Below, in pieces: positions 10,887 through 62,000 of a stretch of DNA of 64,000 bases (position 1 is its first letter; each line of letters begins with the position of its first letter). The position numbers and the translations under genes were made by a program. The stretch is from a virus (Duplodnaviria > Caudoviricetes). The notes under the pieces are model-generated. The model did no database searches. It worked only from the letters and a program-made list of their open reading frames with translations, and was not told where the DNA came from. The stretch is taken from IMG/VR virus record IMGVR_UViG_3300021255_004321, positions 1 to 64,000 of that record; one strand, given 5' to 3'.

Positions 10887-11702
10887 TTAGTTCAACATTT
10901 CAAGGAATGCCTCAGGCGAGATAATTGCTGTTCCAAACTTCTTTGCTTTTTCTGACTTTGAAGAAGTTGAATTTGGGTCGGCCTGAACAAGATATGTAAG
11001 TGTTTTATTTACTGAGGAAACTGTTCCGCCGTTATCAACAACCATTTTCTCAAGGTCAGCTCGTTTGTAGGCCATTGCGCCTGTGAAGCAGAAACTCATT
11101 CCTGCAAGAACGCCGCCTGCAACCTTTTCTTCTTCACCGATATTGCAAAGTTTTGATACTTCAATCAGGTCCTTTTTGATTTCTGACAAAGCCCGCAAAA
11201 CTTTGATGCCTGACTCCAAAGTCCAACCTTTGATAGTTGATATGTCACGAGGATTTGCTTTTTCAAAGAAACTTTCGATTGTGTTGTAACCTGCGTCAAC
11301 CAAAGACTGCAGACGCTTTTCACCGAAGTCCTCGATGTCAAAAGCAGAGATAAAGTTGGCAAGTGTTCTTTTCTTTGACATTGCTGCCTTAAGATTTTTA
11401 CGGATTTTTTCAGCATTCTTGCCTGCGATTTCATCAAGAATAGGATTGTCAATTTCACGAAGGAACTGTGCAAGAGATTTGATATTTGCTTCTTTTACGA
11501 AGTCTTCAACAACTCGTGGACCGATTTCAAGGACATTCCACTTATTTGACATTTTTATGATTGCGTGTTCAATTTTCTTTGCGCAGGAATCATTTGGACA
11601 AAAAACTTCTCCACTGTCATTGATTTCAAGTTCTGTGCCACAACAAGGGCAGACAGTAGGCATTCCCCAATTATATTTTTTAGCAAGTTCCCAAGCTTTC
11701 AT
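10887..11702 (-). CDS. ligA: C-terminal part of NAD-dependent DNA ligase (Zn finger, HhH, BRCT); no adenylation or OB domain
   Basis: PTVCPCCG...FCPNDSC Zn finger; EIGP and IEDFGEK HhH; LAGMSFCFTGAM...SSKSEKAKKFG BRCT. Confidence 0.85.
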   Translation of the reverse strand: MKAWELAKKYNWGMPTVCPCCGTELEINDSGEVFCPNDSCAKKIEHAIIKMSNKWNVLEIGPRVVEDFVKEANIKSLAQFLREIDNPILDEIAGKNAEKIRKNLKAAMSKKRTLANFISAFDIEDFGEKRLQSLVDAGYNTIESFFEKANPRDISTIKGWTLESGIKVLRALSEIKKDLIEVSKLCNIGEEEKVAGGVLAGMSFCFTGAMAYKRADLEKMVVDNGGTVSSVNKTLTYLVQADPNSTSSKSEKAKKFGTAIISPEAFLEMLN

Positions 11703-13036: not shown

Positions 13037-13849
13037 TTATTTTGCATCTCCTGAAGAATCCATTTTTTCTTTTTCTCTTTCAATCAGCGCAGCCTTAAGT
13101 TTGATTGCCTCTTTTTCTCTTTCTTCAACCTTTGTCTTATCGCCTGACTTCAAATTGAAAGTTTCATCTGTTGACTTAATAATCTCAAGTTCCTGTTCAG
13201 TGTATGCAAGGTCATAAATAACCTTTACATTGCTTATGTAAACAACTGAAACATCATAGCCTGTAATAGGAATTGTTCTTATGCGAATTGCTCTAATATA
13301 AAGTTCATTTGTTGCCTTTCCGCCATAAGCTGGGTAATTCAAAACGTCTCTTTTATTAGGGTCATCAACATATTCAAGATTATCCCATTCAAGAACAACT
13401 TCTCCTATAGTCTGCAAATCACCTTTGAATTTATATTCTTTGCCTACTGGGTCATTTGGGTCAGTTGCTAAAAATATTGATACTTCATCGTTTCTGTTTA
13501 TACCATTAACTGTAATACCAAGTTTCTTTAATGTGCCAACATTTGTCAAGTAGCCAAACTCTTTATCAGCTTCAGTTATAATAGGATTGTATGGCGGCAC
13601 AATGTCATAATACACATAACGATTTTCAGGAATGTTCTGAACACAAACAGCAAGTTTGCCATCAACAATCTTAATCTGATAAGGAACTCCCTTAAGAGAT
13701 GACATTGGGCGAACTTCCCAATTTTCGTAGGAATAACCATCAACTGCGTTTTCGATAAAAGTACTTGCATTAAGGAAAGTCTTTTCCTCAGCAAATGTTG
13801 TAAAACAAATTGCGAATAGCATTGCAAATATCGCAAACAACTTCTTCAT
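13037..13849 (-). CDS. flaA: Spirochete-type flagellar filament sheath protein FlaA
   Basis: Sec signal peptide; GYLTNVGTLKKLGITVNG, LEWDNLEYVDDPNKRD...YPAY, YISNVKVIYDLA match the Treponema FlaA pattern; adjacent to flaB. Confidence 0.8.
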   Translation of the reverse strand: MKKLFAIFAMLFAICFTTFAEEKTFLNASTFIENAVDGYSYENWEVRPMSSLKGVPYQIKIVDGKLAVCVQNIPENRYVYYDIVPPYNPIITEADKEFGYLTNVGTLKKLGITVNGINRNDEVSIFLATDPNDPVGKEYKFKGDLQTIGEVVLEWDNLEYVDDPNKRDVLNYPAYGGKATNELYIRAIRIRTIPITGYDVSVVYISNVKVIYDLAYTEQELEIIKSTDETFNLKSGDKTKVEEREKEAIKLKAALIEREKEKMDSSGDAK

Positions 13850-13951: not shown

Positions 13952-14809
13952 CTACTGTAAAAGCTGCAATACATTTTGTGACTGACTGTTTGCCTGTGCA
14001 AGCATTGCAGTTGAAGCCTGCTGAAGGATTGAGTTCTTTGTGAAGTCAACCATTTCTTTTGCCATATCAGCATCGCGAATAATGCTTTCTGATGAAGTCA
14101 TATTCTCTGCTGCAACATTGATACCTTTTGACGCCATCTCCATTCTGTTCTGAACAGCACCAAGGTCAGCTCTCTGTCTGTTTACATTCTTCAATGCTTC
14201 ATCGATTGTTGCAAGTGTACGGTTTGCTTCTTCAGTATCAGAAACTGATACGAGAGCGCCGTCTTCACCATCCTGTCCCTTTCCACGAAGTCCCAAAGAT
14301 TCAGCAGTTGCAGATGCAATGTTAATCTTGATGTTCTGGTCAACATTTGCGCCAACTTGGAAAGTAATTGTATTGTCGGCTTCTTTTGCGAAACGACCTG
14401 TCAACATATTGTAGCCATTGAATTGAGCAGTAGATGCGATACGGTCAACTTCAGCAACGAGCTGTGAAACTTCTACCTGAATCTGCATTCTGTCCTCATC
14501 GCTGTAAACACCGTTTGAAGCCTGAACAGCAAGTTCACGGATACGCTGCAAGATGTCAGTTGTTTCCTGCAAATAACCTTCAGTTGTCTGAATGAATGAT
14601 ATGCCGTTCTGAACATTTTTTGAAGCCTGATTGAGACCACGAATCTGACTTCTCATTTTTTCACTTACGGCAAGATTTGCGGCGTCGTCTCCGGCGCGGT
14701 TGATTTTCTGACCACTTGAAAGTTTTTCCATTGACTTCTGCAAGTCAATTGAATTCAAGTTTTCCTGACGAGCTGCAAAGATTGAGCTCATATTGTGATT
14801 TATAATCAT
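13952..14809 (-). CDS. flaB: Spirochete-type flagellin (filament core FlaB)
   Basis: [71 protein letters not shown]; 285 aa, lacks D2/D3 as in Treponema FlaB. Confidence 0.97.
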
Positions 14810-19373: not shown

Positions 19374-20342
19374 ATGCAATATGATATAATTGCAGTGGAT
19401 ATGTTCAATGTTTTTTATAAAGTAGAACATAATTCACTCGACAAAGATCCTATATCAATTGCTAGGAATATGGTTACCTTTATCAACGACAATGTTAGAA
19501 AGCACCTCGCTGATAAGGGTAAGTTGTTTTTATTATATGACCCAATACCTAAAAATGATTTAGGAATAAGTAAAACTTTCAAGTACACAGAGAGACAGGA
19601 CATTCTTTACGCTTATAAACGTAACCGTACTCACAACAGAAAATGTCTTACTGTTGTTGATACTGTCCGCAAATACTTTTCTCATCGTGGTCCAAATATC
19701 ATAACAGTTATCAGTGATAAATATGAAGCTGATGACTTTATGGAAACAATCATCAAAGAATATAAAGGCAAAGATATTGCAATGGTCACAACAGATAACG
19801 ATTGGTGTCGCTATCTTGAAACTCACAAAGTCGTTATGATTAACGATGATTGGAGAAAGCCATTTACAGCAGAATCATTTGAAGACAAGTATCAATTCAG
19901 ACCATCAATTACAGGTGTATGTGTTTGGAAAGCTTGTTTTGGCGATGGGTCTGACAATATCCGCGGTGCTTTACAACTTAAAGGACTTAAGCAGGCTAAT
20001 CAAATTAAAGTCGCTGCTTTCGAGTATATCAATTATCTCGGAAAACATCCTGATGTTAATATTGATTATATCCTTAAGAAGGAAAGAACAAGCAGTCCGC
20101 TTAAAGAATTGAAAACTCCCGAAGATAAGTTTTTCAATGGTCTTTCCTCTTTCGACCCTAAATATGAAGTCGAGTCTACATTCTTTCAGAATATGAAAGT
20201 CATAATGAGTAGATGCGATGATTATAAGAAGTTCGCTGTTGCGAAAGATGTTGACGATAAATTTAACCTTCTTATTGAAAAGACTTTGGGCTTTAAGGTA
20301 AAAGAAAGTAAGCAGTTCAAGTTTGGTCATATTAAAGGCTAA
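19374..20342 (+). CDS. rnh: 5'-3' exonuclease / flap endonuclease (T4 RNase H-like)
   Basis: AVDMFN, YKRNR, YEADD, TTDND, GDGSDNIRG. Confidence 0.88.
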   Translation: MQYDIIAVDMFNVFYKVEHNSLDKDPISIARNMVTFINDNVRKHLADKGKLFLLYDPIPKNDLGISKTFKYTERQDILYAYKRNRTHNRKCLTVVDTVRKYFSHRGPNIITVISDKYEADDFMETIIKEYKGKDIAMVTTDNDWCRYLETHKVVMINDDWRKPFTAESFEDKYQFRPSITGVCVWKACFGDGSDNIRGALQLKGLKQANQIKVAAFEYINYLGKHPDVNIDYILKKERTSSPLKELKTPEDKFFNGLSSFDPKYEVESTFFQNMKVIMSRCDDYKKFAVAKDVDDKFNLLIEKTLGFKVKESKQFKFGHIKG

Positions 20343-20358: not shown

Positions 20359-21348
20359 ATGCTTTACATTATTGGTGACTTGCATCTTTCTGCAATGAAT
20401 CCTTGGAACTACGAAATAAGTGAAAATTTTATAAAGTGGTTTGAGACTTGGGTTGCGAATATCAAAAAAGAAGATTCCAACCCACATCTTCTTTGGCTTG
20501 GTGATATTACTGAAAAGGATGTCAACCCAGGCGATGTTATCGACCAAGAGTTTCGTATCTTCCAAATATGCTCAAATAACTTCATAACAACCCACGTCAT
20601 AATGGGCAACCACGACATTAAGTTGTATCGCCAAAAAGCACAACATTCTTTGAAGTTCTTACGCAACTTCCCTAATGTAAGTGTCGTTGATAAGCCTATT
20701 GATGTTAATATTTCAAACACAAAAGTAAGAATGCTTCCTCACGTCAGAGTTCAAGGCCGCACTCTTTCAGAATACTATTCTACAATGACTTTCAGAACTG
20801 ATGTTGATTTGGTTGTAGGCCATTGGAATAAATATGACCCAAGCTCACCAATTCAAGGCGGAGTTAAAACAGATAATATGAGAACAAAAGCTTTGTGTCT
20901 TGGCCACGTTCATACAAGAACTGACCCAGATTATACAGGCTCAGTTTTCCCAAATAAAGTTGATGAGATAGGTCAGAGAGTTATAAAAGTTTTCAATGAT
21001 GGCGCTTTTGTAAAAGAGATTGAACTTCCTCAGTTTGTATCTTATGACTCAATTGAATATCCTAAAGAGATTGTTGAACCTCAAGACGGCAAAGTTCATA
21101 TTTATACTGTAGAAGGAATTTCAAACATCACAGCAGCAAAGTCATTTTATAAAGATCACTTCATTCGTGGTGTTCTTTCAAAGAAGATTGATAAAGACCA
21201 AACAACAGGATTTATCTCTGATGATGTCTTTATGTATAAAGATAATTATCAGGCTTTTAATGATTGGCTTAAAGAAACAAAATATCCACTTTCAAGAAAA
21301 GCTGCAGCAATCTTATCTCAAATATTGAAGAAAAATGTTTCTGCTTAA
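20359..21348 (+). CDS. Mre11/SbcD-like metallophosphoesterase nuclease (gp47-like)
   Basis: GDLH, LGD, GNHD, GHW, LGHVH. Confidence 0.8.
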   Translation: MLYIIGDLHLSAMNPWNYEISENFIKWFETWVANIKKEDSNPHLLWLGDITEKDVNPGDVIDQEFRIFQICSNNFITTHVIMGNHDIKLYRQKAQHSLKFLRNFPNVSVVDKPIDVNISNTKVRMLPHVRVQGRTLSEYYSTMTFRTDVDLVVGHWNKYDPSSPIQGGVKTDNMRTKALCLGHVHTRTDPDYTGSVFPNKVDEIGQRVIKVFNDGAFVKEIELPQFVSYDSIEYPKEIVEPQDGKVHIYTVEGISNITAAKSFYKDHFIRGVLSKKIDKDQTTGFISDDVFMYKDNYQAFNDWLKETKYPLSRKAAAILSQILKKNVSA

Positions 21349-21697: not shown

Positions 21698-21745
21698 TGT
21701 TAATATATTTTCAAGTATAAGGCAGTTCGGCCTTAGGGAGATATA

Positions 21746-22798
21746 ATGTTAACGATTGATAAGTCAACTGAATTGACTGTCCACGACTTTATTAAAAATA
21801 AAGAGTATAAGCCTTTCAAAGATTGGCGAACAGTTGCAAAAACTGAAAACTTCGGGTTACTTTTCGGTTGTTCAGCAGGACGATTTGCTGTTATGTTGGA
21901 ACAGGCAAACTTTACAGAAGCTGAATGTGAAGAGTATATCAAATTAAAAAATCTTACATCTGTTTATAACGCTGCACTTTCGAACGCAGGTGGTAAAAAT
22001 CCAAAAGACGTTAAATTTGTTGTTGTTGCAGACGATATGCGTGAGTCATTCTTTAAGTCGTATGAAGGCTTGATGGGCCGCATTAAACGAGAACAAATGT
22101 TTGCTCTTGCTCACGGTTATGTTCGAGCTTGGCACGGACCTGTTCGTCATCTTGCTGAACTTCGTTTTATGTCTGTAAATGACCAAGGAAACTTGACAGG
22201 CGCTGACCGTTCTTTATATTCAAAAATGTTTGCCCACTTGTTAAACAACGCTTGTAACTCAACTATTCAATCAATGGAAGCTCGTATCGCTTTCTCAACT
22301 TGGTTGAATACTTCAAAGTATCTTGCTCTTTGGGGATTGAAATCATACTGTTGGAACAACATTCACGACTCTCTTGACTTTTATGTTTGGAAGCCAGAGT
22401 TACAACTTGTTATGTCTTTGGCAAACGCTTGTGCTGCTTGGGACCGTGAACCTGTAAAAGGCATTCATATGTCTTTTGATGGAGAAGTATCTGATGTTCA
22501 GGATTACGAACACCGCTGCAACACATATTATAAAGCGGGTGTAGGTTATGACCCACTTCCAATTGAAGAAGCAATTAAAAACTACAATGCAAAGAATGGC
22601 ACCGACCTTAAGTGGTACGGTTGCGATTGGCTTTATGATAAATATATGCCAAACAGAGATGAATTTTATAAATACTACTGCAATCTTAATGGTAAGTTGA
22701 ATGTTGATGAATTCATCAAATCTTGGGGCGGTGTAATTCCTGAAGGTGTTGAAGTTGTTGAAATGCAAAAGCCTGCTAGGAGAATAATCAATGGATAA
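21746..22798 (+). CDS. polA: Family-A DNA polymerase, C-terminal piece (motifs B and C)
   Basis: RTVAKTENFGLLFG (B), HGYVRAWHGPVR, ACNSTIQS, IHDSLDF (C). Confidence 0.88.
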   Translation: MLTIDKSTELTVHDFIKNKEYKPFKDWRTVAKTENFGLLFGCSAGRFAVMLEQANFTEAECEEYIKLKNLTSVYNAALSNAGGKNPKDVKFVVVADDMRESFFKSYEGLMGRIKREQMFALAHGYVRAWHGPVRHLAELRFMSVNDQGNLTGADRSLYSKMFAHLLNNACNSTIQSMEARIAFSTWLNTSKYLALWGLKSYCWNNIHDSLDFYVWKPELQLVMSLANACAAWDREPVKGIHMSFDGEVSDVQDYEHRCNTYYKAGVGYDPLPIEEAIKNYNAKNGTDLKWYGCDWLYDKYMPNRDEFYKYYCNLNGKLNVDEFIKSWGGVIPEGVEVVEMQKPARRIING

Positions 22799-23030
22799 GA
22801 TACCTCACGAATGTAAAAAAGAATACACTGAAAAAGATGCTTATGCAGATTATGGTCGTCTTCTTGCAATGCGGGATTTGAGAATAAATCATTCTGAACT
22901 TGCTGACGACAAATGGTGCAATGATTACTTTATGGCAATTGTTGAGAATATGAGAAAGAACGGGTATGATGTTGATATGATGCTTTACTTATATAAGAAA
23001 CAGGAAGACGGTTCTTGGGAGGCAATATAA
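22791..23030 (+). CDS. Small hypothetical protein
   Basis: Overlap-coupled, AGGAG SD. Confidence 0.6.
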   Translation: MDKIPHECKKEYTEKDAYADYGRLLAMRDLRINHSELADDKWCNDYFMAIVENMRKNGYDVDMMLYLYKKQEDGSWEAI

Positions 23031-23620
23031 TGGCAACAACACGAAGAAGTAAGGCTGAGATTGAAGCAGAGAAGAAAGCAAAGCTTGAGCGTAAACTCGA
23101 AAGGGAAAGAAAGAAGGCTGAAAAGGAAGCTAAAGCAAAAGCTCGTGAAGAAAAGAAAGCTGCAAAAGAAGCAAAGTTGAAGGCAAAAGAAGAAGCTGCA
23201 AAAGCAAAAGAATTGCAAAAACTTGAAGACGAAAAAATGCAAAAGATTATTGATAAGCTTAAAGTTGGAAAAGAATATGCCCAGCCTAAGCCTATGACAA
23301 TAAAAGAAAAGGATTTGTGCAAAAAGATTTTGGAAGGCGCTGTTCTTTCAATTTGCAGTCAAACTTACGGTCAGCATTCTTTTAATATCTTGTCACATAG
23401 AGGGAATGAATTCGTAATAAGCATTGATAGCGTTTATTACTTTTACAACAAAGCAAAGAATACAGGCATAAATTTCGGAAGTGTTTTTGATACTTGGCTT
23501 GAAAGTTGTAAAAGAATTCCTTGGACAGAGTCGGAGCCTTCAATATTGACTAATCAAGTCATTCAGATAACAGAGGGCGTTAATTTAACTACTACAAAGA
23601 AAAAGAGAGGTAAGAAATAA
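23030..23620 (+). CDS. Hypothetical protein with K/E/A-rich helical N-terminus
   Basis: GGAGG SD, TAATG coupling. Confidence 0.7.
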   Translation: MATTRRSKAEIEAEKKAKLERKLERERKKAEKEAKAKAREEKKAAKEAKLKAKEEAAKAKELQKLEDEKMQKIIDKLKVGKEYAQPKPMTIKEKDLCKKILEGAVLSICSQTYGQHSFNILSHRGNEFVISIDSVYYFYNKAKNTGINFGSVFDTWLESCKRIPWTESEPSILTNQVIQITEGVNLTTTKKKRGKK

Positions 23621-25680
23621 TGGCGTTTACATTTGGCGGCATAAAAGAAAATACAAAGGCAAAGGACTTACTTAAGCCGTCTGACATTCTTGATTATGTT
23701 ATTGAAGATCACTTCGATGAAGATGAAAAAGATTATTTTATTTTCTTACTTGACAAGTTTCCTGCTGAAGATAAAAAGCAGCTTATCCTAAAACGTATCC
23801 GTGATGCGGGTTATCGTTCTTATAAAGTTTTAGTTGCTGTTGACTGCAAATATAAAGAAGATGACTTGAAAGGTGGAAGTATTGTTGAGTTTATGATGAC
23901 TCACCGTTCAGGTTGGAGAAAAGATATTGATTGTGCAGGAACACACTGCCGCGCCATTATGACTTTCGGTTGCGCTATGTATTCAATCAACTGTTCTGCT
24001 GATATTTTGACAGGTGACTTTTATGATGATAAGATGTTAAGACCTTATTATTATATGGGTCACGAAATCTTCAAGTATGATACCTACATATTCCCAGTTG
24101 ATGGCATTGAAGAATTGTACCCAACAATTAAGTCATCATCTAATTCAGTGAATTATAAAACAAAGTTTTTCTACTCACAGGTCTCAAGAATGCGTAAGAC
24201 ACCTTATGAGTGGGAGCCAATGTTTTTATCATCTGACCCAAAGTTTATTTCAGTCAATTCAAAAGAAGAAGCAGACAAAGTATTCAAAGACAATATGGAC
24301 AAGTACTTGGTTGCGTTCGATACTGAAACAAACGGTTTGAAGTTTTATGAAAATCATATTCATTGTCTTACAATCTGTTGGGACGGCCTTAAGGGATATT
24401 TCATTCCTTGGAAATATGTTGATGTAAAGTTGTTTGAAGAAAATGTTATGTCTTGTCAGCATCGCACAGGTGCCAACCCTAAGTTCGATATTAAGTTCTT
24501 TTGGAAACACGGTGTATCAAGACGAGTAAATGTTACAGATGCAACTGACCGTTTGGCCCACTGTATTACATCTGAAGTTAGGTCAGGTTTGAAGCCACTT
24601 GCATATCGTTACTCTCCTTTTGGCGGTTATGATATTAAACTTGATAAGTGGAAGAAACAAACAAAGTGTGATGACTACACAAAGATTCCTAATGACATCC
24701 TTGCCCCTTATGCAACAATGGATGCTTTGGTTACTTGGAGAATTCAGTGTGAGTTGTGGACACTTGTTGATGAAATCGACAGAAACTTCCCTAACGAAAA
24801 ATATCCTGAGTGGACAATTCGCCGTTGGTATGAAACACAGATGATGGAAATTTACAAAGAGATTTGTAATGTTGAATATCGCGGTATTTATGTTAACTGG
24901 GATTTGATGGAAAAGTATCGTTGTGAAATGGTTGAAGACTTGCGAAAGAAAGATGAAGAGCTTCGTAAGATATGGGGTGTTGATAACAACTTCAACATTT
25001 CATCAACAACTGAAGTAGGTAAGTTGTTTGAAAAACTTGGATGGACTTGCTGCGGTCGTAATGAAGCAGGTGTTTATCTTACAGGTGATGAAGCTATGGG
25101 TACTTGGTCAAGAGAGAAACGCCCAGGAGTTGATTTACTTGCTGAATATCGAACTGAGAAAACTTCACTTGGTTCTTTCGTAGGGCTCGATCCTGCTATG
25201 TGGGAAACTCACAAAGATTGGCCTGAATGGTTGAAGCCTAAAGAAACTACGGGTTGGCTTCAGTACATATATCACGATGAAAACGATGGTAACCCAGAAG
25301 AAGGTGGTTCATATCGAGTTCAGCAGTCTTATCTTGTAATGGGGACAGAAACTTATCGTTTTATTGGTAAAGATCCAAACTTCCAAAACATTCCTACACG
25401 TAATAAATATGCAGGTTATGTAAAGAAGTGTATTGATACTCCGCCTGCTGATTTGTACACAATCGTAGGCAGTGACGGCAAGGAATATAATCTTGCAGAG
25501 TTTGAGCTTGTTTACACAAACGAAGGCTATAAAACTGCAAAAGAATGTTTCTCAAAAATGAGAAGTTTGCAATTTATTGATAAAGACCCAGAGCATCCTG
25601 CAGTTTTGAGATGTGGATTTGATAAACAAGAGGACGGATCTTTCAAAAAACCAGACCCAAAAATTTGGTTTGAAGCATAA
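23620..25680 (+). CDS. polA: Family-A DNA polymerase, N-terminal piece (3'-5' exonuclease and thumb), ends before motif A
   Basis: AFDTETNGL (ExoI), NPKFDIKF (ExoII), YATMDA (ExoIII), GTETYRFIGKDPNFQNIP. Confidence 0.9.
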   Translation: MAFTFGGIKENTKAKDLLKPSDILDYVIEDHFDEDEKDYFIFLLDKFPAEDKKQLILKRIRDAGYRSYKVLVAVDCKYKEDDLKGGSIVEFMMTHRSGWRKDIDCAGTHCRAIMTFGCAMYSINCSADILTGDFYDDKMLRPYYYMGHEIFKYDTYIFPVDGIEELYPTIKSSSNSVNYKTKFFYSQVSRMRKTPYEWEPMFLSSDPKFISVNSKEEADKVFKDNMDKYLVAFDTETNGLKFYENHIHCLTICWDGLKGYFIPWKYVDVKLFEENVMSCQHRTGANPKFDIKFFWKHGVSRRVNVTDATDRLAHCITSEVRSGLKPLAYRYSPFGGYDIKLDKWKKQTKCDDYTKIPNDILAPYATMDALVTWRIQCELWTLVDEIDRNFPNEKYPEWTIRRWYETQMMEIYKEICNVEYRGIYVNWDLMEKYRCEMVEDLRKKDEELRKIWGVDNNFNISSTTEVGKLFEKLGWTCCGRNEAGVYLTGDEAMGTWSREKRPGVDLLAEYRTEKTSLGSFVGLDPAMWETHKDWPEWLKPKETTGWLQYIYHDENDGNPEEGGSYRVQQSYLVMGTETYRFIGKDPNFQNIPTRNKYAGYVKKCIDTPPADLYTIVGSDGKEYNLAEFELVYTNEGYKTAKECFSKMRSLQFIDKDPEHPAVLRCGFDKQEDGSFKKPDPKIWFEA

Positions 25681-25863: not shown

Positions 25864-27174
25864 TTAAATTGCTTTGTAAGTTGCAACGATACTCAGAAGA
25901 ACCTGAGGGTCAAGGCTGCTACTGTAAGAACTGAACATTTCAAGGAAAGGCCACTTTTCAGCATCAATCTTGATTGTCTCTTCTGCAGCAGTGCTAATCT
26001 GGAAGCCAGCAACGCGAGCAACACATTCAATCTTGCGAAGATTGTCTCTTGCAGTCCAAGAATTGTTATCTTTTTCTGCATTTTCAACAACTTTCATAAA
26101 CTCTTTGATTCTTTCCATTTCATCAGGTGCTGCTTCAAGGTTGAGACGGCTTGCATTTGCATTCCAATAATTGATAATCTTGTCACGAACAGAGCTTGAA
26201 GAAAGAACTCCGATACGGCCTTCAATGTTTGTAATCTTGTTCTGTGAAGCAAGGTTTTCGTAATACTTCAGACCCTGCTTTTTAGCAAACTCAATGAAAG
26301 TATTCAACTTCTTGTAAGCTTCACCTTTCTGAAGGCGCTTCCAATCGCCGTAGTTGATTTTCAAAGCCTTTCTTTTAGGGAAGACAACTTTAAGGTAGTC
26401 TTCAAAACCGTAAAGATATTTTGAAGGTGTAGTCTTGCAAGTATTCAAATCAGCAGAGTAATAATCACTACGATTGCGGGCGATGAAGATGATTGCATCC
26501 TTAAGGTTTGCATCAGCCAAGATTTGGTTTGCGCTGTAAAGTTTATCAGCATCATATTTTCCAATTCCGCCGAAAAGCTTTTCGTCGTCAACGCGGCCTG
26601 CAAGTCGAGTAACAACCTTCTTTTCTGCTTTACCGTTTACATCAACCTCAACGTAATCGTCGAAGTTGAAAACTCTTGGGCTTGCATACCCAACTTTCTT
26701 TACAAGATCTTCAATATTAGGACCCATAATTGTGATTGGGTAATCACCTGTAAGTTTGTTTTTTGCAAGGATGTCGTCAAGAACCATTGCAGAACCGTTA
26801 GGGAACCAACGGAAGTCAGCAGAGTCCATAAACTTGTCATACTTTTTCTGAGAAATGTTTACAAAGATTATTGACTTTTCTTTGTTTTCAGAGAAGAAGT
26901 ATCCGATCTTCTGTTCAGTTGTGTTGAACTTTGCAATGTAAGAAGGTCCTGCGTACTTGTGAACCTGACGATTGTTGTTGTTTCTGTAAGTTGATACTTC
27001 GATAAAAGGAAGACTGAAAATATCATTGATTTTATTTTCAATCTTTGACTGCTTTTCAGCCTGAACCTTGACGATGTCAGAAATATCGTCTTCAAGCAAG
27101 TCCTGATACTTTTCAACGATTTTTGTAAGCTTTCCGATACGCTTGCAAGTGTTGTAAGACTGTTTGATATTCAT
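25864..27174 (-). CDS. Hypothetical protein, possibly separated C-terminal part of rIIA
   Basis: Follows short rIIA-like ATPase; own class-1 promoter and SD. Confidence 0.6.
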   Translation of the reverse strand: MNIKQSYNTCKRIGKLTKIVEKYQDLLEDDISDIVKVQAEKQSKIENKINDIFSLPFIEVSTYRNNNNRQVHKYAGPSYIAKFNTTEQKIGYFFSENKEKSIIFVNISQKKYDKFMDSADFRWFPNGSAMVLDDILAKNKLTGDYPITIMGPNIEDLVKKVGYASPRVFNFDDYVEVDVNGKAEKKVVTRLAGRVDDEKLFGGIGKYDADKLYSANQILADANLKDAIIFIARNRSDYYSADLNTCKTTPSKYLYGFEDYLKVVFPKRKALKINYGDWKRLQKGEAYKKLNTFIEFAKKQGLKYYENLASQNKITNIEGRIGVLSSSSVRDKIINYWNANASRLNLEAAPDEMERIKEFMKVVENAEKDNNSWTARDNLRKIECVARVAGFQISTAAEETIKIDAEKWPFLEMFSSYSSSLDPQVLLSIVATYKAI

Positions 27175-27255: not shown

Positions 27256-28296
27256 TTACGCTGTTGCGAGTTCTTCGTAAGCTTTTCTTGAGTAGAAGTT
27301 TACGATTGATCTTTTCAAGGCATTTTTTGTTGCTTCTGTGTAATTTAACTTTTCACGAGAAGCCTGAAAGTTCAAAGAACCGATTGGGAAGTGAAGAACC
27401 AAAGTATGATTGTGTGAGTCTTCTTTGAAGAAAGAAATTGCATCGTAATCTCCATCGAAAACCTGTGCAATATCAACATCGTAAGGAACTCCGCCCATAT
27501 CAACGATTGTTCCTGAGAAACGGCCTGCAATCTTTGTGATAAACTTGTTTGCAGCCATCATATCAGCGTCAGTGGCATCGTAAGCATCTGAATACTTGTC
27601 GGTCTTTACAATAAGGCGGTTTTCTCCCTTCAAAAGCTTGCGAATATTGTTGAACTGCTCAAGGCTTTCAACTTCAGCCTGCTGCAGGAATTTGTCAACT
27701 CCATTGAGAAGTTCAGGCATCTGCTGTGCAAAAGCAAGAACAGGAATTGCTTCGTAAATGTAGTTGAAATGCTTGTCAGAAGGAACTGCAAAGTAAACTT
27801 TTGTTCCTGTTTCGTTTGAAGGCTCTTCACCGATAAACTTAAAACGTGGCTTTCTGTCAGGACCGCGGTAACAAAGAGCTGTTCTCTTAATACCGTCTTT
27901 TGAACTTTCAACTGTCCAAGTATCAGCAACAGAGAACGGAGATTTTGCTCCAACTCCAAGGCCACCAATCTGGTCGTTTGTATCACGCTTGTCAGAACCG
28001 CCGTAAGTGAAGACATTACGCATTTTTGCGGCATCCATTCCTATACCGTAATCACGAACCCAGAAAGTTGGGTCAATTTCGTTAGGAAAGTGTATCTGCA
28101 CAGGATTTTCAACTCCTGCAGCGATATTTGCGTCAATTGCGTTTGAAAGAACTTCGCGAATTACTGACTGAATTGGGTTTGAATAGAGCTTTGTCGAAAG
28201 AATGTCGAACAAGCCTGCATCGTTTGAATTGAGTGAAAATACTTCACCGTCGTCGATATTTGACTGAATGTCGGCTGCATTTGCATTGATTACCAT
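27256..28296 (-). CDS. rIIA: rIIA-like GHKL ATPase (N-terminal part)
   Basis: FDILSTKLYSNPIQSVIREVLSNAIDA, RDYGIGM, IGGLGVGAKSPF, ETGTKV. Confidence 0.85.
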   Translation of the reverse strand: MVINANAADIQSNIDDGEVFSLNSNDAGLFDILSTKLYSNPIQSVIREVLSNAIDANIAAGVENPVQIHFPNEIDPTFWVRDYGIGMDAAKMRNVFTYGGSDKRDTNDQIGGLGVGAKSPFSVADTWTVESSKDGIKRTALCYRGPDRKPRFKFIGEEPSNETGTKVYFAVPSDKHFNYIYEAIPVLAFAQQMPELLNGVDKFLQQAEVESLEQFNNIRKLLKGENRLIVKTDKYSDAYDATDADMMAANKFITKIAGRFSGTIVDMGGVPYDVDIAQVFDGDYDAISFFKEDSHNHTLVLHFPIGSLNFQASREKLNYTEATKNALKRSIVNFYSRKAYEELATA

Positions 28297-38650: not shown

Positions 38651-39020
38651 TTTCTTCTCCACTTTCAAAAGGGTTTGTTAAAAAATACTTAAAAAAGACA
38701 TCTCTTACTTCTTGTGTTTGTTGATAACCACTCCAAAGTGTTGCATCAACAGGCTGCCCAACCTGAGAAAGGTGTTCTCTGTATAAATCATTTATTTTTT
38801 CAAACCAAGCTTCAGAAAAAGCAATTACAACATCATAATAAGATCTTGGGTTTTTAAGAAATTGAAAAAAGTTGTATGTGTCACTAATTGTTTCATAAAG
38901 AGGAACAAGGATTTCTTGAGCAAACGTATAAAATGGCTCATCGATGCTTTGAGCAAAATAAGAATGGAGTTTTGTCTTCAGGACTTCATTGATGCCTGTA
39001 ATCTTATTTCGTATATCCAT
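38637..39020 (-). CDS. Tandem paralog family member 3 (divergent)
   Basis: KNPRSYYDV; AGGAG SD before MDIRN. Confidence 0.6.
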   Translation of the reverse strand: MDIRNKITGINEVLKTKLHSYFAQSIDEPFYTFAQEILVPLYETISDTYNFFQFLKNPRSYYDVVIAFSEAWFEKINDLYREHLSQVGQPVDATLWSGYQQTQEVRDVFFKYFLTNPFESGEENETA

Positions 39021-39384
39021 AAGCGCTCCTATAAAGATCTGCTTTATGATGTACATACGCAATCGACTGATGAAAAAATAATTCATCATCAGTCAAACCA
39101 CTAATATATTCTTCATAAAAAGGCAACCAAACTTGTTTGTAATAAGCATCACAAACATCATAAAAAGAAACAACATTGTGTTTCCATTCATTTATCTCTC
39201 TTGGGCTCTGAAGCAATTCAAGGAACTCTTTCAAAGCTTCATATGTTTCTTTTATAAAATCTTCAGGGTCAGTACACTTAAGATAAAATCTAACGCAAGG
39301 ACGAAGTGTTTTTATAAGGCTTTCACGAAGCTTGTTTTCTACTGAAAAAGTCAGTGCGTTTTTGAGCAATTGCATCTTTCTCAA
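39004..39384 (-). CDS. Tandem paralog family member 2
   Basis: WKHNVVSFYDVCDAYY. Confidence 0.7.
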   Translation of the reverse strand: MRKMQLLKNALTFSVENKLRESLIKTLRPCVRFYLKCTDPEDFIKETYEALKEFLELLQSPREINEWKHNVVSFYDVCDAYYKQVWLPFYEEYISGLTDDELFFHQSIAYVHHKADLYRSAYGYTK

Positions 39385-56088: not shown

Positions 56089-59000
56089 ATGATGAAAGAA
56101 GGTCTTACATTTATAAGTGAAAGAACAGGTCAGCTTAGATATTCTGACATTGCGACAGAAGAACAGTGGATTCAGCAAACAAGTACATACATTCCAATTC
56201 AAACTATCAAAAGAGGACAGCCTGTTTCAATTGCAACAAAAGAAGACTTGGAAATTGTTGCAAATGGTGATGAAGCTTTGTATGAAGCACTCCTTAATTC
56301 ATCAGACTCTTATGTAGTTTTAACAAACCCAACAAGACATACAAACACAATCGGTCTTGCTTTGGAATATACTGACGGACATCACGAGCTTGTTGATGGA
56401 AAACTTGAAACTGCTCCAAAGATTCATATTATCAACAATGGTAAATACATTGAAGATGCCAACTATTATGCACAGGCTTTTACAGAAGAAGATTCTTATA
56501 CAGTTGCAGGTGATGCCGACTCAGAATATGAGGAATACTGGCCGCCATTCTTTGATGATTATGAAAACTCAATTGGTAAGAAAATCTATGTAAAAGGTTC
56601 AGCTGACGGTGAACTTACACTTGTAAAAGAAGAAGCATACCTCGCTCACAACAATGTTATCGTTCTCGGTTTCGTAACAGACGCTAAACTCAAAGATAAA
56701 GAAAATGAAAAAGATGTTGGCGCAATCGAAGTTCAGGTACAAGGCGATGACCGCGGCCTTATTGATGCAACAATCTTTGAAGCTGTTGTAGGTGAAGACT
56801 TTGTTATAGGTGATACAAAAGTTCAAGCAAACGGCGAAACAAACTGTAAGACAAAAGTATTTGCTTTAGGTTCAGAAGATGATGAAACATTTGAGTTCTC
56901 ATTCAACATCAATCAGCTTGTTAATACTCCAATGCCTAAAGGTTTTATCGCTCTTCAAAGAATTGACGGTAAAACATACATCATTCAGACAAATGGCGAA
57001 ATAAGTGAAAGCCTTCTCAATGAAGGTGAAGCTTATGATTATAATGACCGCGCCTTCTATCAAGTTGCAAAGTATTATGCTGCAAATTATAATGAGTCAA
57101 TCGAAAAAGTAGACCTTGCTGTTACTGAAGCATCAGCAACAAACTTGATTTCAAAGTTGGAAGCTGAACTTAAAAATGCAATGGCTTACATCTCACAAGG
57201 CGAAAATGTTTCATTAAAAGATGGCCATACATCAAACATTACAGACCTTGATTTTGATGAGTCTGAACTTGGCACAAAGCATCGTCTTATTTGTAGAGCA
57301 AACGACATTGGTGGTTACTTTGATGTTTATGTTTCATCAAACTTAACAGGTATTTTATCTGACCTCAATATCAAGTCACACGGTTCATTCTTCAACAGAG
57401 GATATGCTGTTCTTGCAGACATTCGTAATCCTAAGAGACAGAACATTATTGGTATTTACAACTCAGGACATACTGGACTTGTAAAGAAAGGTGAAAATGC
57501 AATTTTCTTAAAGCAGGGTCTTTTCAGAGATGACTCAAATCCTTTTGAAGTAGGTGAAAGATACTATCTCGGTTCACACGGTAACATTTTCAAAGTTCCT
57601 CAAGAATACTACAACTCAATCATCTCAATCGGTTATGCACAATATAAAGATGCTTTAATTGTCGATTGTTGTGATGTAAGACAATATAACAATGGTGACC
57701 TTCCTGTAGGCTATATGAAGCCTTCTATCAAAGGTGAAGCTGAATTCGGCTTCTTGTTGATGAACGGTCAGCCTGTAGAATATGAAGGACACGAACTTCT
57801 TTATAAGAGACTTAAGAACTGGTATGATGAAGCTGACTTGAAGCTTGGTTCATATTCTTTCGGTGAAGTAGAGAAAGCAGGATTTATTATCCCAAAAGTT
57901 CAGTATCAAAAACATACAGGTGAAGAAGAGTCTTATACTCCTGCACAGATTAAGTGGCTTGCAGAAGGCGTTTATAAAGAAATGCCAAGAACACCTTTTG
58001 TTCGTCGCTTCGTTGATATTGATTATCCAAAGCAAGTTGTTGATAACAACGGAGAAGAAGAGGAAATCATCTTAGCACATCAGGCAAGAATACCTGACAT
58101 TGACATTACTCCTCTTATGATTTATGGTCCTGAGGAAGACCGTTTGCAAATCCCAGATTTGGAGAATCTTGACATCAAGTTCTTCGCTGACTTGTCAGAT
58201 GGCAATGTTCCTGAATGGGTACAAATTGACCCAGGCTTCCATTCATTTGATGCACTTACATACTTTGGTTATAAATGGACTGTAACACAAACTAATGAGC
58301 CTTCTGACTCAAATCCTTACGGAACTTGGGTATTGAGAGCAGCTTATAACGGAACACAGGGTCCTAACGAAGTTGATAACGATGATACTGCTATGGGTAT
58401 TTGTTATCAAGCTGACCCATTCTCTCCACCTGTTTCACTTGCAGGTCGTCGTGCAAGAATCTTTGTTGTAAAACACGATTACTACTCAAGACAGTTTGAT
58501 GTTGAAGCTCTTTTCAAAGATTATGTAAAAGAGTCTTTGGTTGATGCAACTGACCAACCTTGGGTAAGCCACGCAATCTCAGGTAACGCTGTTCGTCAGG
58601 ACCTTTACAGAAGAGTTTACACAAAAGACTTATTACTTGGTTCAACTGAAAGAAGAGCTGATGTAAATGGTTATATTCAGTCAATCAGATTGAACGGTGA
58701 AGCTCTTGAGAACGAAGATGAGTTGGCTGCATATACTCTCAACACAAATCTTCGTTTGAAGAATCCTGCAGCTGCAAACGGCGCATTCCTTGATTACTAT
58801 AACGGAATATTAAAGTATTATTATCAGAATGAAACTGAAGATAGCGCAATCTCACATAAAGCAGACTTACAAAAAGACATCTTAAATGAGCCTTACGCAT
58901 TGCTTCCTTCTTATATGTTCAAAGCTCATAAAGAGTTGTTGGTTAAAAATGCAACAGCAAAAGACTTTACAGATCATCCTCACGGAATTGTAAATGATGG

Positions 59001-62000
59001 TTATGAAGGCAACCTTAATGCAAAAACTTTACAATCTGCAAACTTGGGTTACCCACAGCATATCTTGTCAAACAATGTAACAGAAGATGTAAATGAAGTT
59101 TATGTTGAAAAAGAGAATGCTGCAATTGCAATCACAATCCCTTATACACAAAAGACTACTACAGGTGATTACAGAACTCGTCTTGGTAACTTGACAGAAT
59201 ACAGAGACGCAGACGGTAACCTTATAAGACATACAATCAAAACTTATGGTAACACATCTGAACTTGTAGAAGATATTGATATTCGTAATGGCTTTGATTA
59301 CGTTCAGAGAATACGCGGTGGTGTTGGCAGCAACAAGTCAATGAATATCAAGTATGGGTTCTCTGACGACGAACACGATATAACTTTTGAAGATGATAAC
59401 GGAAACCCATTAAGCTTGTATGGTAACTTTGTTCAAACATCTTCAATTAAAAAGAAGTATGTTCTTTCAAGATTTGAAGGTAAGAACTCTCCTGCTATCG
59501 GAAGTGAGTTCTCAGATAAATATATCGGTGACGGTGAAGAGCAAGTATTAAATGAAGCTTTGCAGGCAATTTATGAAATGCCTCTTGCAACATTCAAGTA
59601 TAACAGAGAATACTTATCTGAAGACCCTTGGTACAAGAGATACTTCGGTATTATCGTTGAAAGAATTGCTGCAACAAAAGAAAACTTTGCAAGTGATGCA
59701 GAGTTGACAAACAAGACTGCATTAGACGAAGTTGAGTATACTTATACTGATGAAGAGAAAGCTTCTATTGCAGAATACCTCAAACTTGTAACTGACAACC
59801 CAGAACAGGGTATGCGTGAGTCAACTGTTATTGGTATTCTTTTGAAAGCTGCAAAAGAAACACAGGAAAGATTGCTCAACCTTGAAGTATCAACATACGG
59901 TAAGGATTCTCCTACACTCCCAGGTGAGGACGAAAAGAATCCAAACTTTACAGCAAATGACCAAAAGTCAACAATCGCAGGTCTTAACCGTTTGGTTAAA
60001 GCATTGTGTCGTGAAGTGTTCCAAAATGCTGACCCAACAAATATCAATGAACTTGGCGGTTGGTCTGAAGATGGCGAAAACTATTCACGCCTTGACTTGA
60101 TTGATAAAGAAGTAAACGGTGAAGCTGCAAAGGATGATAACCAAGAAAGAATCTTCCTTACAAAGGATATTGGTAAAACATATCCTGATGTTGCAGATAT
60201 TACAGAAGAAGCTACACCTAATGAGGCGCTTGTTCCTGATACTGCAAATGATAACGACTTCGGCGGCAAAGATGCAGTTAAGTACCCAACAGATACAACA
60301 TATACTTCAAACCCAGAAGATATTGATGACTTTGATGGTATTAACGATGCAATCAACAGAATCGTAGCTAAACTCAATCAACTCACAATTAACATCAACG
60401 GTGAGGACGACATCAAAAAGAATCCAAAGAAACTTGATTACATTCGTGGAACTTTGGTAACACTTCTTCGTGATGTTTACTCTGATGGTTCAGTTGATGA
60501 TGTTGAAAATGGCATATATGTTAAGAAAGGCCTTTCAAGAATTGATAAGATTCTTCAGGACCTTTACAACTTCGATTTAACTTACGGTGCAACAAGAGCA
60601 AAAGTAAATACATACAACGGCAAAGACTTGTATGGTGTAGAAAATAATGAGTCAGCAAGTACAGAAATGATTGACTCATTCAGTTCTCGTTCACCTGAAA
60701 AGATTGAAGATATTTTTGGCAAGGCATCAATTCTTGATGTTATAATTGAACTTCTCTCAGGTAATGAAAACAACTTGGTTAAGACAAAGTTGACACCTTG
60801 GAAAGACCTTGCAAACAATGAAAACAATTGGAAAATAAACGCAGACAACACAGTAGCAACAACATACGATAATACTGCAGAACTTGAAAACAATAAAAAC
60901 TCTCGTAATCATTATACTGTTCTTCAGAGACTTGACGACATTGAAAAAGCATTGACTTTGATGTTCTCAAGATTTGCAAACAAAACTGATTTCACAAAAG
61001 ATGCTCCTCGTATCGGTGAAGGCGCTTATGACGGTGTAACATCAGTTGATGATTATATGAAGTTCTTGAGACGCAACTCAGGACTTTGTTTCCACAGCGC
61101 AGGCTTGTATGCAGATAAAGTTGAAAACGATGAAAGAACTTCTGCAGCCAAAGCAATTACTGCTGAAGATTGGGTAAGACCTGTTCACGACACAGTAGAC
61201 AACTTCGATGTTTACGATACAATCTATGATGCAATCAAACGTATTAAGAACAGTGAAATGAACTTGGGCTACAACAATGCTAAGCTCGGTACTGATTACG
61301 ATACATATAAGAACGGTAACGCAAGAATTACAAAAGATGCTTACGAAACTCTTGCTCCAAACGGTGAGGTTCCAACTCCTGATTATACTGTAACATCTGA
61401 TATGAGAGCAGTTCTTAAATTGCTCTACGGTTCTGACTTGGCAAATGCAGATGCTTCAGATAACAAGACAGGTTCAGTACACTTCAATGTTACTGATGAA
61501 GCAAGTGACAACTTCAAGAACTCTCCTAACGGTGTTTCAGTAATTGATGCATTATATAAGATGTTATATAATGTGCCTCAAGCTTACAACTATGATGCAG
61601 GCGCAGGTACATCATCAAGATTATCAGGAACAGTTGATGCTATATTTGAAAATGCAAAAGGCTTTGACCCAGCAGTTCCAAAAGCTCATATTGCTGTAGG
61701 TGAAAGTGAGTCTCCTGTAGCAGACGGACATCGTAAAGGCTTCATCTTGCAAAATAAAGATGGTAACGCTTACAGAAAGAATCGTATTGATGTTCTTGAA
61801 GATTGGGTAAAAGCTATTTATAGATATGTTGGCTTTGGTAGCACAGAAGATCCATATTACTTCATCGGTGACCTTCACCTTACTTTCGAAGATAGAGATG
61901 ATGGCGATAAAGATGTATTCGTAAATGGAAAACAGTACTGCACAACAGCTTACAACAAGAAGTACATCACAACTTCTGGTAACTATACACTTGCAGAGAT

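Follow-up and report, generated by a model that had tools for sequence, protein, structure and literature searches.

We describe a family A DNA polymerase (PolA) that a large uncultured gut phage encodes in three genes of scrambled order. The stretch of DNA analyzed here (the window) comprises positions 1 to 64,000 of IMG/VR record IMGVR_UViG_3300021255_004321, a 91.8-kb record that is estimated to be 31% complete. Two of the three genes lie in the window between positions 21,746 and 25,680, and they stand in permuted order. The gene for the C-terminal part of the polymerase domain (the C-piece) precedes the gene for the exonuclease, thumb, and first part of the palm (the N-piece). The segment that belongs between them carries motif A and is encoded by a distant third gene (the middle piece), which we identified in a related record. 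We favor, with a probability of about 0.8, the reading that these dispersed and permuted genes specify a non-covalent three-subunit polymerase that arose by duplication and loss. Family A polymerases are textbook single-chain replicases. Here, the polymerase domain is cut twice, which places the metal-binding carboxylates and the O helix on different proteins.

Two partial polymerase genes in permuted order

A first-pass annotation, made from the letters of the DNA, had read a split PolA in the window, with a motif B and motif C piece upstream of an exonuclease and thumb piece and two genes between them. Both pieces were confirmed as plus-strand open reading frames (ORFs), as were two intervening ORFs of 79 and 201 aa (Table 1). 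Purine-rich Shine-Dalgarno-like sites precede the ATG of both pieces, in line with the annotation's remark that each has a proper ribosome-binding site.

The C-piece matches positions 237-355 of the 381-position Pfam DNA_pol_A profile (E 2.5e-9), with a weaker match to positions 204-242, and PHROG 17 (DNA polymerase) agrees with the Pfam placement of both pieces. It starts at the last strand of the fingers insertion domain, about 27 residues ahead of motif B, which begins at residue 28; the distance had been put at about 26 aa. Motif B (RxxxKxxxFGxx[YF]G) has R28 and K32 invariant and F36 and F40 nearly invariant in 26 aligned C-piece sequences (alignment A3). In the same sequences, H207 and D208 of motif C are invariant and S209 is nearly so. 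The C-piece also carries the N171/Q175/E178 motif, and its invariant residues were scored in alignments A3 and A4. The first-pass annotation had tentatively tied the LLFG of motif B to modified nucleotides. Phenylalanine occupies this position in 98 of the 108 representatives with a recognizable motif B, in fused and split enzymes alike. The residue is a trait of the clade and gives no evidence for modified nucleotides. An exhaustive phmmer search found 277 C-piece relatives at E≤1e-3. No match was returned by phmmer against PDB sequences or by tblastn against 50,697 phage records (E≤1e-5).

The N-piece matches DNA_pol_A_exo1 (PF01612) over residues 211-383 (E 2.5e-9) and DNA_pol_A (PF00476) over profile positions 4-151 of 381. 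Proofreading exonucleases of this kind are recognized by the motifs DxE (Exo I), Nx2-3[FY]D (Exo II), and Yx3D (Exo III). The corresponding N-piece residues, D234/E236, N286/F289/D290, and Y364/D368, are invariant among 22 sequences of 45-83% identity (alignment A1). The palm/thumb motif DPNFQNIP occupies residues 585-592, with P586, N587, F588, Q589, N590, and P592 invariant in the same alignment. The piece had been described as stopping soon after this motif. It does end past the motif, but "soon" overstates the case, because the ORF continues for 94 further residues. An N-terminal domain (about residues 1-200) is followed by the exonuclease, thumb, and palm, a vestigial motif A strand (about 612-619), and a conserved, beta-rich tail (about 620-686). 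An AlphaFold2 model of the N-piece has a mean pLDDT of 84.1, places tail strands at residues 613-616, 622-625, 630-633, and 636-639, and finds family A polymerases as its top structural matches (Foldseek, E 2e-12). The nearest sequences in tblastn are T5-like and N4-like phage polymerases, at 21-27% identity. The truncation of the N-piece is family-wide: its homologs form 34 clusters at 90% identity, 32 with lengths of 658-711 aa and two made up of shorter fragments.

The extra N-terminal domain of about 200 residues is predicted to be folded, with pLDDT mostly above 85. Czernecki et al. 2023 (PMC10201439) describe a UDG-PolA in N4-like phages (cluster 17) with an N-terminal domain that resembles uracil-DNA glycosylases (UDGs) of family 4. 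A Pfam scan of the N-piece, in which the extra domain was not searched alone, matched no UDG family at E≤0.01.

Motif A is missing from both pieces

Canonical motif A is present in neither the C-piece nor the N-piece, as the first reading of the sequence had also found. In phmmer, the motif A strand and Asp of Klenow align to the N-piece sequence '...YTIVGSD'. We considered this Asp as the catalytic residue and rejected it, because the acidic residue drifts or is lost among the 22 homologs: D or E stands in one column in 16 sequences and in the next column in 4 (the window's included), and 2 have none. Downstream of the strand, the alignment and the model have a beta hairpin instead of the motif A helix. 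The N-piece retains a vestige of the motif A strand alone. A second candidate, the 'TVHD' of the C-piece as a DxH motif, was also rejected. The DxHSxT of fused relatives is located further upstream, and the N-terminus of the C-piece aligns past the insertion domain.

Searches of the surrounding DNA gave no substitute. Inspection by eye found no motif A in the two intervening ORFs or in the C-piece tail. In the family search, DNA_pol_A positions 152-203 (the motif A region) were unmatched anywhere in the 91.8-kb record. tblastn with single segments returned noise only (E≥1).

The third gene

The first-pass annotation had predicted a motif A gene outside the DNA it was shown and proposed a search for it. 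We used a related 188.7-kb record (G001) that is roughly 94% identical to the window's record (G000). The two are co-linear, with a nucleotide identity of 87-96%, and window position 1 falls at G001 position 72291. A hidden Markov model (HMM) was built from 47 motif A to DxHSxT segments of relatives and run with filters off against 7214 six-frame ORFs, drawn from G000, G001, and five related loci. The search returned a single match, at E 1.9e-14, with a runner-up at 0.055; the best value within the whole of G000 was 3.9. The match is a 141-aa ORF on the minus strand of G001 (38958-39383; L021:958-1383) with its own ribosome-binding site. This middle piece bears DFASLQAR (motif A) and DLHSMT (DxHSxT), which supplies the motif that both window ORFs lack. 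It has no Pfam match, and tblastn against the 50,697 phage records gave no match at E≤0.01. Since this smallest, catalytically essential piece has no Pfam match, annotation pipelines would call such phages motif A-less or polymerase-defective.

In G001, the middle gene lies 54 kb from the C-piece gene on the opposite strand, near a DnaB-like helicase gene. Co-linearity puts its expected place in the window's phage about 33 kb ahead of window position 1 and on the other strand. A comparable arrangement exists on a 259-kb contig (locus L006) whose C- and N-pieces are 73% identical to those of the window. On this contig, the middle gene (77% identical) is at about 110.5 kb, and the C- and N-piece genes are at 217.4 and 219.2 kb on the opposite strand, a distance of 107 kb.

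The middle-piece family comprises 41 clusters at 90% identity with lengths of 84-141 aa, none with a precomputed Pfam domain. In an alignment of 21 sequences (A2), D23, S26, L27, R30, D72, H74, S75, T77, and G78 are invariant. The position that we take to correspond to the sugar-discriminating Glu of Klenow is Q in 11 of these sequences and E in 10. Four more pairs of N-piece and middle-piece clusters share the size of their largest contig (264136, 23047, 30230, and 5723 bases). These pairs are suggestive only of co-occurrence of the two pieces.

An enzyme with exonuclease and polymerase on one polypeptide is not what these genes encode. The parts are spread over three ORFs with their own starts and stops, two of them in permuted order and the third 54-107 kb away. 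Because the ORFs are separate, we class the enzyme as a split variant of family A and not as a canonical member.

Conservation and a model of the complex

The order C-piece then N-piece recurs on four further IMG/VR contigs (L004/L011, L005/L012, L006/L015, and L007/L013) and on L038 and L040. Each of the three pieces shows purifying selection. Comparing the window (or G001) with the 259-kb contig gave a dN/dS of 0.13 for both the C-piece and the middle piece and of 0.18 for the N-piece; the N-piece tail (residues 614-686) had a value of 0.066. The exonuclease and polymerase residues that we checked are invariant or nearly so, each in its own piece.

A multimer prediction had been suggested as a check on the split, and it was run on three chains: residues 200-686 of the N-piece, the C-piece, and, as the scored partner, the middle piece. 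The three-chain score was 0.86 (runs 0.86, 0.89, and 0.86). Unrelated partners scored 0.00 and 0.00, and a control in which the N-piece was replaced scored 0.59, the best of the controls. In the calibration of the tool, the score mark was reached by 116 of 157 solved complexes and by 2 of 215 mismatched pairs. The runs agreed on at least 84% of contacts, with a partner pLDDT of at least 68. The tightest contacts join middle-piece residues 16-21, the strand before Asp 23, to C-piece residues 211-216 and 249, beside motif C. As modeled, the middle-piece strand lies against the motif C hairpin and would form the canonical palm sheet. Tight contacts are also predicted between N-piece residues 610-612 and middle-piece residues 6-13. 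At the junctions, N-piece residues 605-616 and parts of the tail contact the middle-piece N-terminus in the model, and the first 25 or so C-piece residues contact the middle-piece tail.

These features suggest how the enzyme could work. Three polypeptides would be made separately and would assemble without covalent joining. The active site would be composite, with the motif A carboxylate coming from the middle piece and the motif C carboxylate and O-helix residues from the C-piece. The N-piece would provide primer/template contacts and proofreading. The middle piece would contribute the motif A strand with the catalytic Asp, DxHSxT, and most of the small fingers insertion domain. Strand complementation may hold the junctions together: the first 25 or so residues of the C-piece would pack on the middle-piece tail, and the vestigial strand and tail of the N-piece would pack on the middle-piece N-terminus.

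Several points weigh against the three-subunit reading. The gene structure, the conservation, and the selection on the polymerase pieces are direct observations, but assembly, activity, and evolutionary path are inferred. The dN/dS values are rough, with dS above 1 (saturated). The complex score may reflect likeness to solved single-chain family A polymerases, perhaps even memory of them, and the tool had been calibrated neither on three chains nor on user-supplied alignments. The 0.59 of the N-piece-replaced control narrows the margin, though such a value would be expected if the middle piece rests on the C-piece as well. Another polymerase may be encoded in the unseen part of the relative's genome, about 35% of it. 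Finally, the middle gene of the window's own phage is extrapolated from a relative of roughly 94% identity. It was not found in the window's 91.8-kb record, which at 31% completeness ends about 33 kb short of its expected place.

A further idea concerns how the subunits might be used. The motif A subunit could be an exchangeable or regulated catalytic cassette, with the N- and C-pieces forming a proofreading-competent scaffold that stays inactive until the cassette docks, and with the near-even E/Q variation at the sugar-discriminating position tuning nucleotide acceptance. We consider this unlikely. If true, it would make the enzyme a natural replicase of three parts, in which an active-site module acting in trans sets the activity or the choice of substrate.

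Alternatives to separate subunits

The pieces might instead be decaying or repurposed, for example as an exonuclease-only protein, with an intact polymerase elsewhere in the genome. The first-pass annotation had named an intact polA, with these pieces decaying, as one finding that would overturn a split enzyme. The phage genome size is taken as roughly 290 kb; about 35% is unseen for G001, the closest long record, and 69% for the window's own record. The loss of motif A from the N-piece also fits decay, as does the partial look of other window genes (a ligase C-terminal part and an rIIA N-terminal part, described below). The sequences themselves point the other way. The three pieces are conserved over many clusters with low dN/dS, every catalytic residue that was checked is invariant in its piece, and searches of G000 and G001 found no match to PolB, Pol III alpha, or a further PolA. 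The polymerase genes are also placed among replication genes: FEN, SbcD, UvsX, and helicase genes in the window, and the DnaB-like helicase gene by the middle gene. Decay or repurposing is therefore quite improbable in our judgment.

Joining of the pieces was the other possibility raised at first, where the choice was left between a multi-subunit and a trans-spliced enzyme. The multi-subunit form is the one favored by the evidence: each piece has its own start, stop, and ribosome-binding site, there is no sign of an intein or intron in the scans described here, and RNA contigs are co-linear with the DNA. At the protein level, joining would require that the tails be split-intein halves that ligate the three pieces after translation. 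Inteins often reside in the catalytic motifs of polymerases. The N-piece tail is beta-rich, and visual inspection suggests a loose resemblance of its start, and of the opening C-piece residues, to Hint blocks. Intein blocks are marked by Cys or Ser at position 1, TxxH, and a terminal HN followed by Cys, Ser, or Thr; these defining residues are not among the invariant junction columns of A1, A2, and A3. No Hint or intein Pfam family matched any piece at E≤0.01. The putative halves are far too short: the N-piece has about 66 residues beyond its vestigial strand, and the middle piece has 15 ahead of its motif A strand. Counterparts of the tails also exist inside fused relatives, which marks the tails as parts of the enzyme and not as excised elements. 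Protein trans-splicing is very hard to reconcile with these observations.

Joining at the RNA level, by trans-splicing introns, ribosomal bypass, or frameshifting into one reading frame, fares still worse, and we regard it as extremely unlikely. Group I introns are common in phage polymerase genes, and the first-pass annotation had offered RNA joining as an alternative. However, the pieces are permuted and the third lies 54-107 kb off on the opposite strand, and each has its own ribosome-binding site, ATG, and stop codon. An Rfam scan of 15.4 kb surrounding the three genes (L001, L002, and L032) detected no intron at E≤1. Contigs from three RNA libraries (X15-X17), which cover the stretch incompletely and may contain DNA, are co-linear across the boundaries between the C-piece and the 79-aa ORF, the 79-aa and 201-aa ORFs, and the 201-aa ORF and the N-piece, with no joints.

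The chance that the permuted order or the distant third gene is an artefact of misassembly is negligible. All records compared are metagenome assemblies and none is closed, but contigs from separate IMG/VR data sets repeat the permuted order at protein identities of 99%, 77%, 73%, and 42%. Stop codon, ribosome-binding site, and ATG form clean gene boundaries that are conserved. Logan contigs of one DNA run, perhaps the source sample and so not independent, tile the whole 5-kb stretch in overlapping pieces without joints.

Origin of the three-gene arrangement

Relatives of the polymerase occur in several architectures. Among 12 relatives that we read, some are fully fused at about 850-1070 aa, including P0059 and P0060, and others carry motif A at the N-terminus of the C-piece (P0046 and P0071). 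P0036 has the motif A and DxHSxT segment fused behind the C-piece. The fused relatives P0059 (1071 aa), P0060 (1065 aa), and P0082 (863 aa) are single chains, unlike the window's pieces. They carry the clade motifs D[YFA]xx[LF]Q[LM]R (motif A), DxHSxT, RxxAKxxNFGxxFG (motif B), and HDS (motif C), and they also have an N-terminal extra domain and a C-terminal tail.

We classified the best 150 C-piece relatives, taken as 50%-identity representatives. Free-standing C-pieces with a complete N-terminus account for 52 and fused or long proteins for 63. Motif A stands in front of the C-piece in 7 and behind it in 1. The rest are N-truncated fragments (15), unclassified sequences (11), and one sequence with no C-piece match.

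A two-gene form is found in L040, a 143-kb contig with a 42%-identical C-piece. There, the C-piece gene is followed 12 nt on by a gene for a 707-aa fusion of the N- and middle pieces, which includes motif A, DxHSxT, and the insertion domain. A tandem duplication in which the outer halves were later lost would be expected to give such a permuted layout. In the clade of the window, the middle-piece N-terminus overlaps the N-piece by about 20 homologous residues, and the N-piece tail resembles the fingers insertion domain of the middle piece and of relatives (hhalign probability 82.9%, E 9e-6, 35 columns). Together, the overlap and the likeness of the tail suggest that the middle segment was duplicated and that the N-piece then underwent an internal deletion. 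The tails had been described in the first-pass annotation as non-polymerase sequence. That description did not hold, because the C-piece tail is also present in the fused P0059 and P0060 and the N-piece tail has the resemblance just described.

We propose a path in two steps. A fused enzyme would have become a two-gene permuted form, with the C-piece followed by the N- and middle pieces. The middle segment would then have been duplicated, and the N-piece would have lost its copy by internal deletion, leaving the overlapping vestiges.

Two loci carry possible homing-endonuclease genes near polymerase genes. Between the middle gene and the DnaB-like helicase gene of G001 lies a 310-aa ORF (L021 2352..3284, +) whose match to NUMOD3 is weak (E 0.0014, falling short of the Pfam cut-off) and which has, by our own reading, a histidine-rich HNH-like stretch. 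This ORF may encode a homing endonuclease and could be relevant to how the middle segment moved. L044 has a 28%-identical free-standing C-piece of 279 aa followed by an SMC/SbcC-like gene, and the 12.7 kb of this locus, which is part of a contig, showed neither an N-piece nor a middle piece. Two genes upstream of its C-piece, an 894-aa ORF that is cut by the contig end (L044 3..2684, +) has a LAGLIDADG homing-endonuclease domain (E 3.4e-6).

Comparison with known split polymerases

We compared the three-gene polymerase with published split replicases. The PhiKZ-type family B polymerase consists of DNAP-N and DNAP-C, which form a stable non-covalent complex, as proven by cryo-EM and activity assays (Basu et al., bioRxiv 10.64898/2026.09.30.755723). 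Like the PhiKZ enzyme, the polymerase described here would be a jumbo-phage replicative polymerase made from separately encoded polypeptides. It differs in belonging to family A and not B and in having three pieces and not two.

The closest precedent within the family is a fission of exonuclease and polymerase genes in T7-like cyanophage PolA (S-SBP1-like), which Czernecki et al. 2023 (PMC10201439) call the first split in PolA. Those genes are adjacent and in natural order, and the split came from a 1-nt deletion (PMC10201439). The two cases share a phage family A polymerase expressed as separately translated, presumably interacting proteins. Unlike the S-SBP1-like split, the cuts here flank motif A and DxHSxT within the polymerase domain, the genes are dispersed and out of order, and the two catalytic carboxylates are on different chains. 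OM43 phages MEP401 and MEP402 have a two-gene DNA polymerase for which the authors think an intron possible (PMC10580990). Theirs has two pieces in apparently natural order, and the paper describes no dispersed third gene.

Group 2.2 jumbo phages encode a split Pol III alpha from distant genes that are predicted to reconstitute the enzyme (Iyer et al. 2021, PMC7824862). As in our case, a catalytic polymerase module is made as stand-alone proteins from distant genes in jumbo phages. Theirs is a family C enzyme in two pieces that exists beside PolB, whereas no other replicase was found in G000 and G001. Our literature search, which did not extend to subscription journals and supplements, found no description of a three-gene PolA or of a PolA split within the polymerase domain. 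Within the same limits, the only published PolA gene fission it found separates the exonuclease from the polymerase domain (PMC10201439).

The clade is not a tiny one, with 34 N-piece and 41 middle-piece clusters and about a third of the best C-piece relatives (52/150) free-standing. Fused, two-gene permuted, and three-gene forms coexist in it and provide a natural series for the fragmentation of an essential enzyme by duplication and loss. The series could show which interfaces let polymerase fragments reassemble, which would be useful for engineered split polymerases, and could guide the search for hidden subunits of other "incomplete" viral enzymes.

The polymerase locus and its upstream elements

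Four tightly packed plus-strand ORFs, the C-piece gene through the N-piece gene, come after the FEN-like and SbcD-like genes (Table 1). The order of the FEN-like and SbcD-like genes is also present in L006. The 79-aa ORF is absent between the pieces in L006 and L040, which places it outside the conserved layout. The 201-aa ORF has a Lys/Glu-rich N-terminal half and a C-terminal domain, and it weakly matches PHROG 3793 (function unassigned). Its counterpart in L006 is a 243-aa ORF (dN/dS 0.18), and it is absent from the two-gene relative L040. A search of the protein Atlas with this ORF from residue 6 gave no informative neighbor.

Table 1. Features of the polymerase locus in the window.
Feature	Position	Strand	Evidence and remarks
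FEN-like gene (free-standing 5'-3' exonuclease)	19374..20342	+	Pfam 5_3_exonuc_N E 2.2e-9; PHROG 107 / PHROG 100 matches for this FEN-like gene and the SbcD-like gene
SbcD-like phosphoesterase gene	20359..21348	+	Pfam Metallophos E 1.8e-8; PHROG 107 / PHROG 100 matches for the FEN/SbcD pair
Promoter-like motif GTTAATATA	21699..21707	+	39 nt upstream of the C-piece ATG
C-piece, 350 aa	21746..22798	+	ORF and Pfam DNA_pol_A; motifs B and C; clade-specific C-terminal tail
ORF, 79 aa, function unassigned	22791..23030	+	No Pfam or PHROG match
ORF, 201 aa, function unassigned	23015..23620	+	Probable true start is the ATG at 23030
N-piece, 686 aa	23620..25680	+	ORF and Pfam PF01612, PF00476; exonuclease, thumb, first palm part
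Copies of the 9-mer GTTAATATA	3736, 9505, 19045, 19181, 21699, 31867, 34693, 50699		

The 9-mer GTTAATATA occurs in eight exact copies in the window, compared to 0.52 expected, and none of 100 shuffles reached eight. In G001 and L034 it also precedes the middle-piece gene, and in L006 the C-piece gene. Its distance is about 35-45 nt from the C-piece gene and, in G001 and L034, from the middle-piece gene. No copy lies between the C-piece and N-piece. We regard the 9-mer as a candidate phage promoter that could bring the dispersed polymerase genes under common control.

Short GC-rich, hairpin-like stretches were noted at window positions 21715..21745 (...GGCAGTTCGGCC...) and at about L021 1384..1415 on the minus strand (...GGCACATTTCGGTGC...). 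They stand immediately ahead of the AGGGAG ribosome-binding sites of the C-piece gene and of the G001 middle-piece gene. The likeness is lost in L006 and L034.

Other genes of the window and possible host

Two other window genes look partial. A 271-aa ORF at 10887..11702 (-) corresponds to the C-terminal part alone of an NAD-dependent DNA ligase (PHROG 3869 positions 386-653 of 656; Pfam BRCT and HhH), and the adenylation domain was not found in the neighboring ORFs that were scanned. This may be another split or partial gene. A 346-aa rIIA-like ORF at 27256..28296 (-) covers positions 1-304 of the 725-position rIIA profile. The next ORF (436 aa, 25864..27174, -) has no Pfam or PHROG match and corresponds to a 435-aa ORF in L006 by position and length only. 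rIIA may also be encoded in two genes. A 2344-aa ORF at 56089..63123 (+) and several ORFs of 440-1136 aa between 41.7 and 56 kb have no PHROG match at E≤1e-5.

The window also contains a full flagellin gene at 13952..14809 (-), with matches to Flagellin_N (E 2.6e-42) and Flagellin_C (E 2.2e-26). Beside it, a gene at 13037..13849 (-) matches FlaA (PF04620, E 3.4e-10), a flagellar filament outer-layer protein that we take to be typical of spirochaetes. The two genes may hint at a spirochaete host. At least 34% of sampled words from the phage were present in 14 DNA runs from 9 studies, one of them perhaps the source sample, and all are labeled as animal gut or faeces metagenomes.

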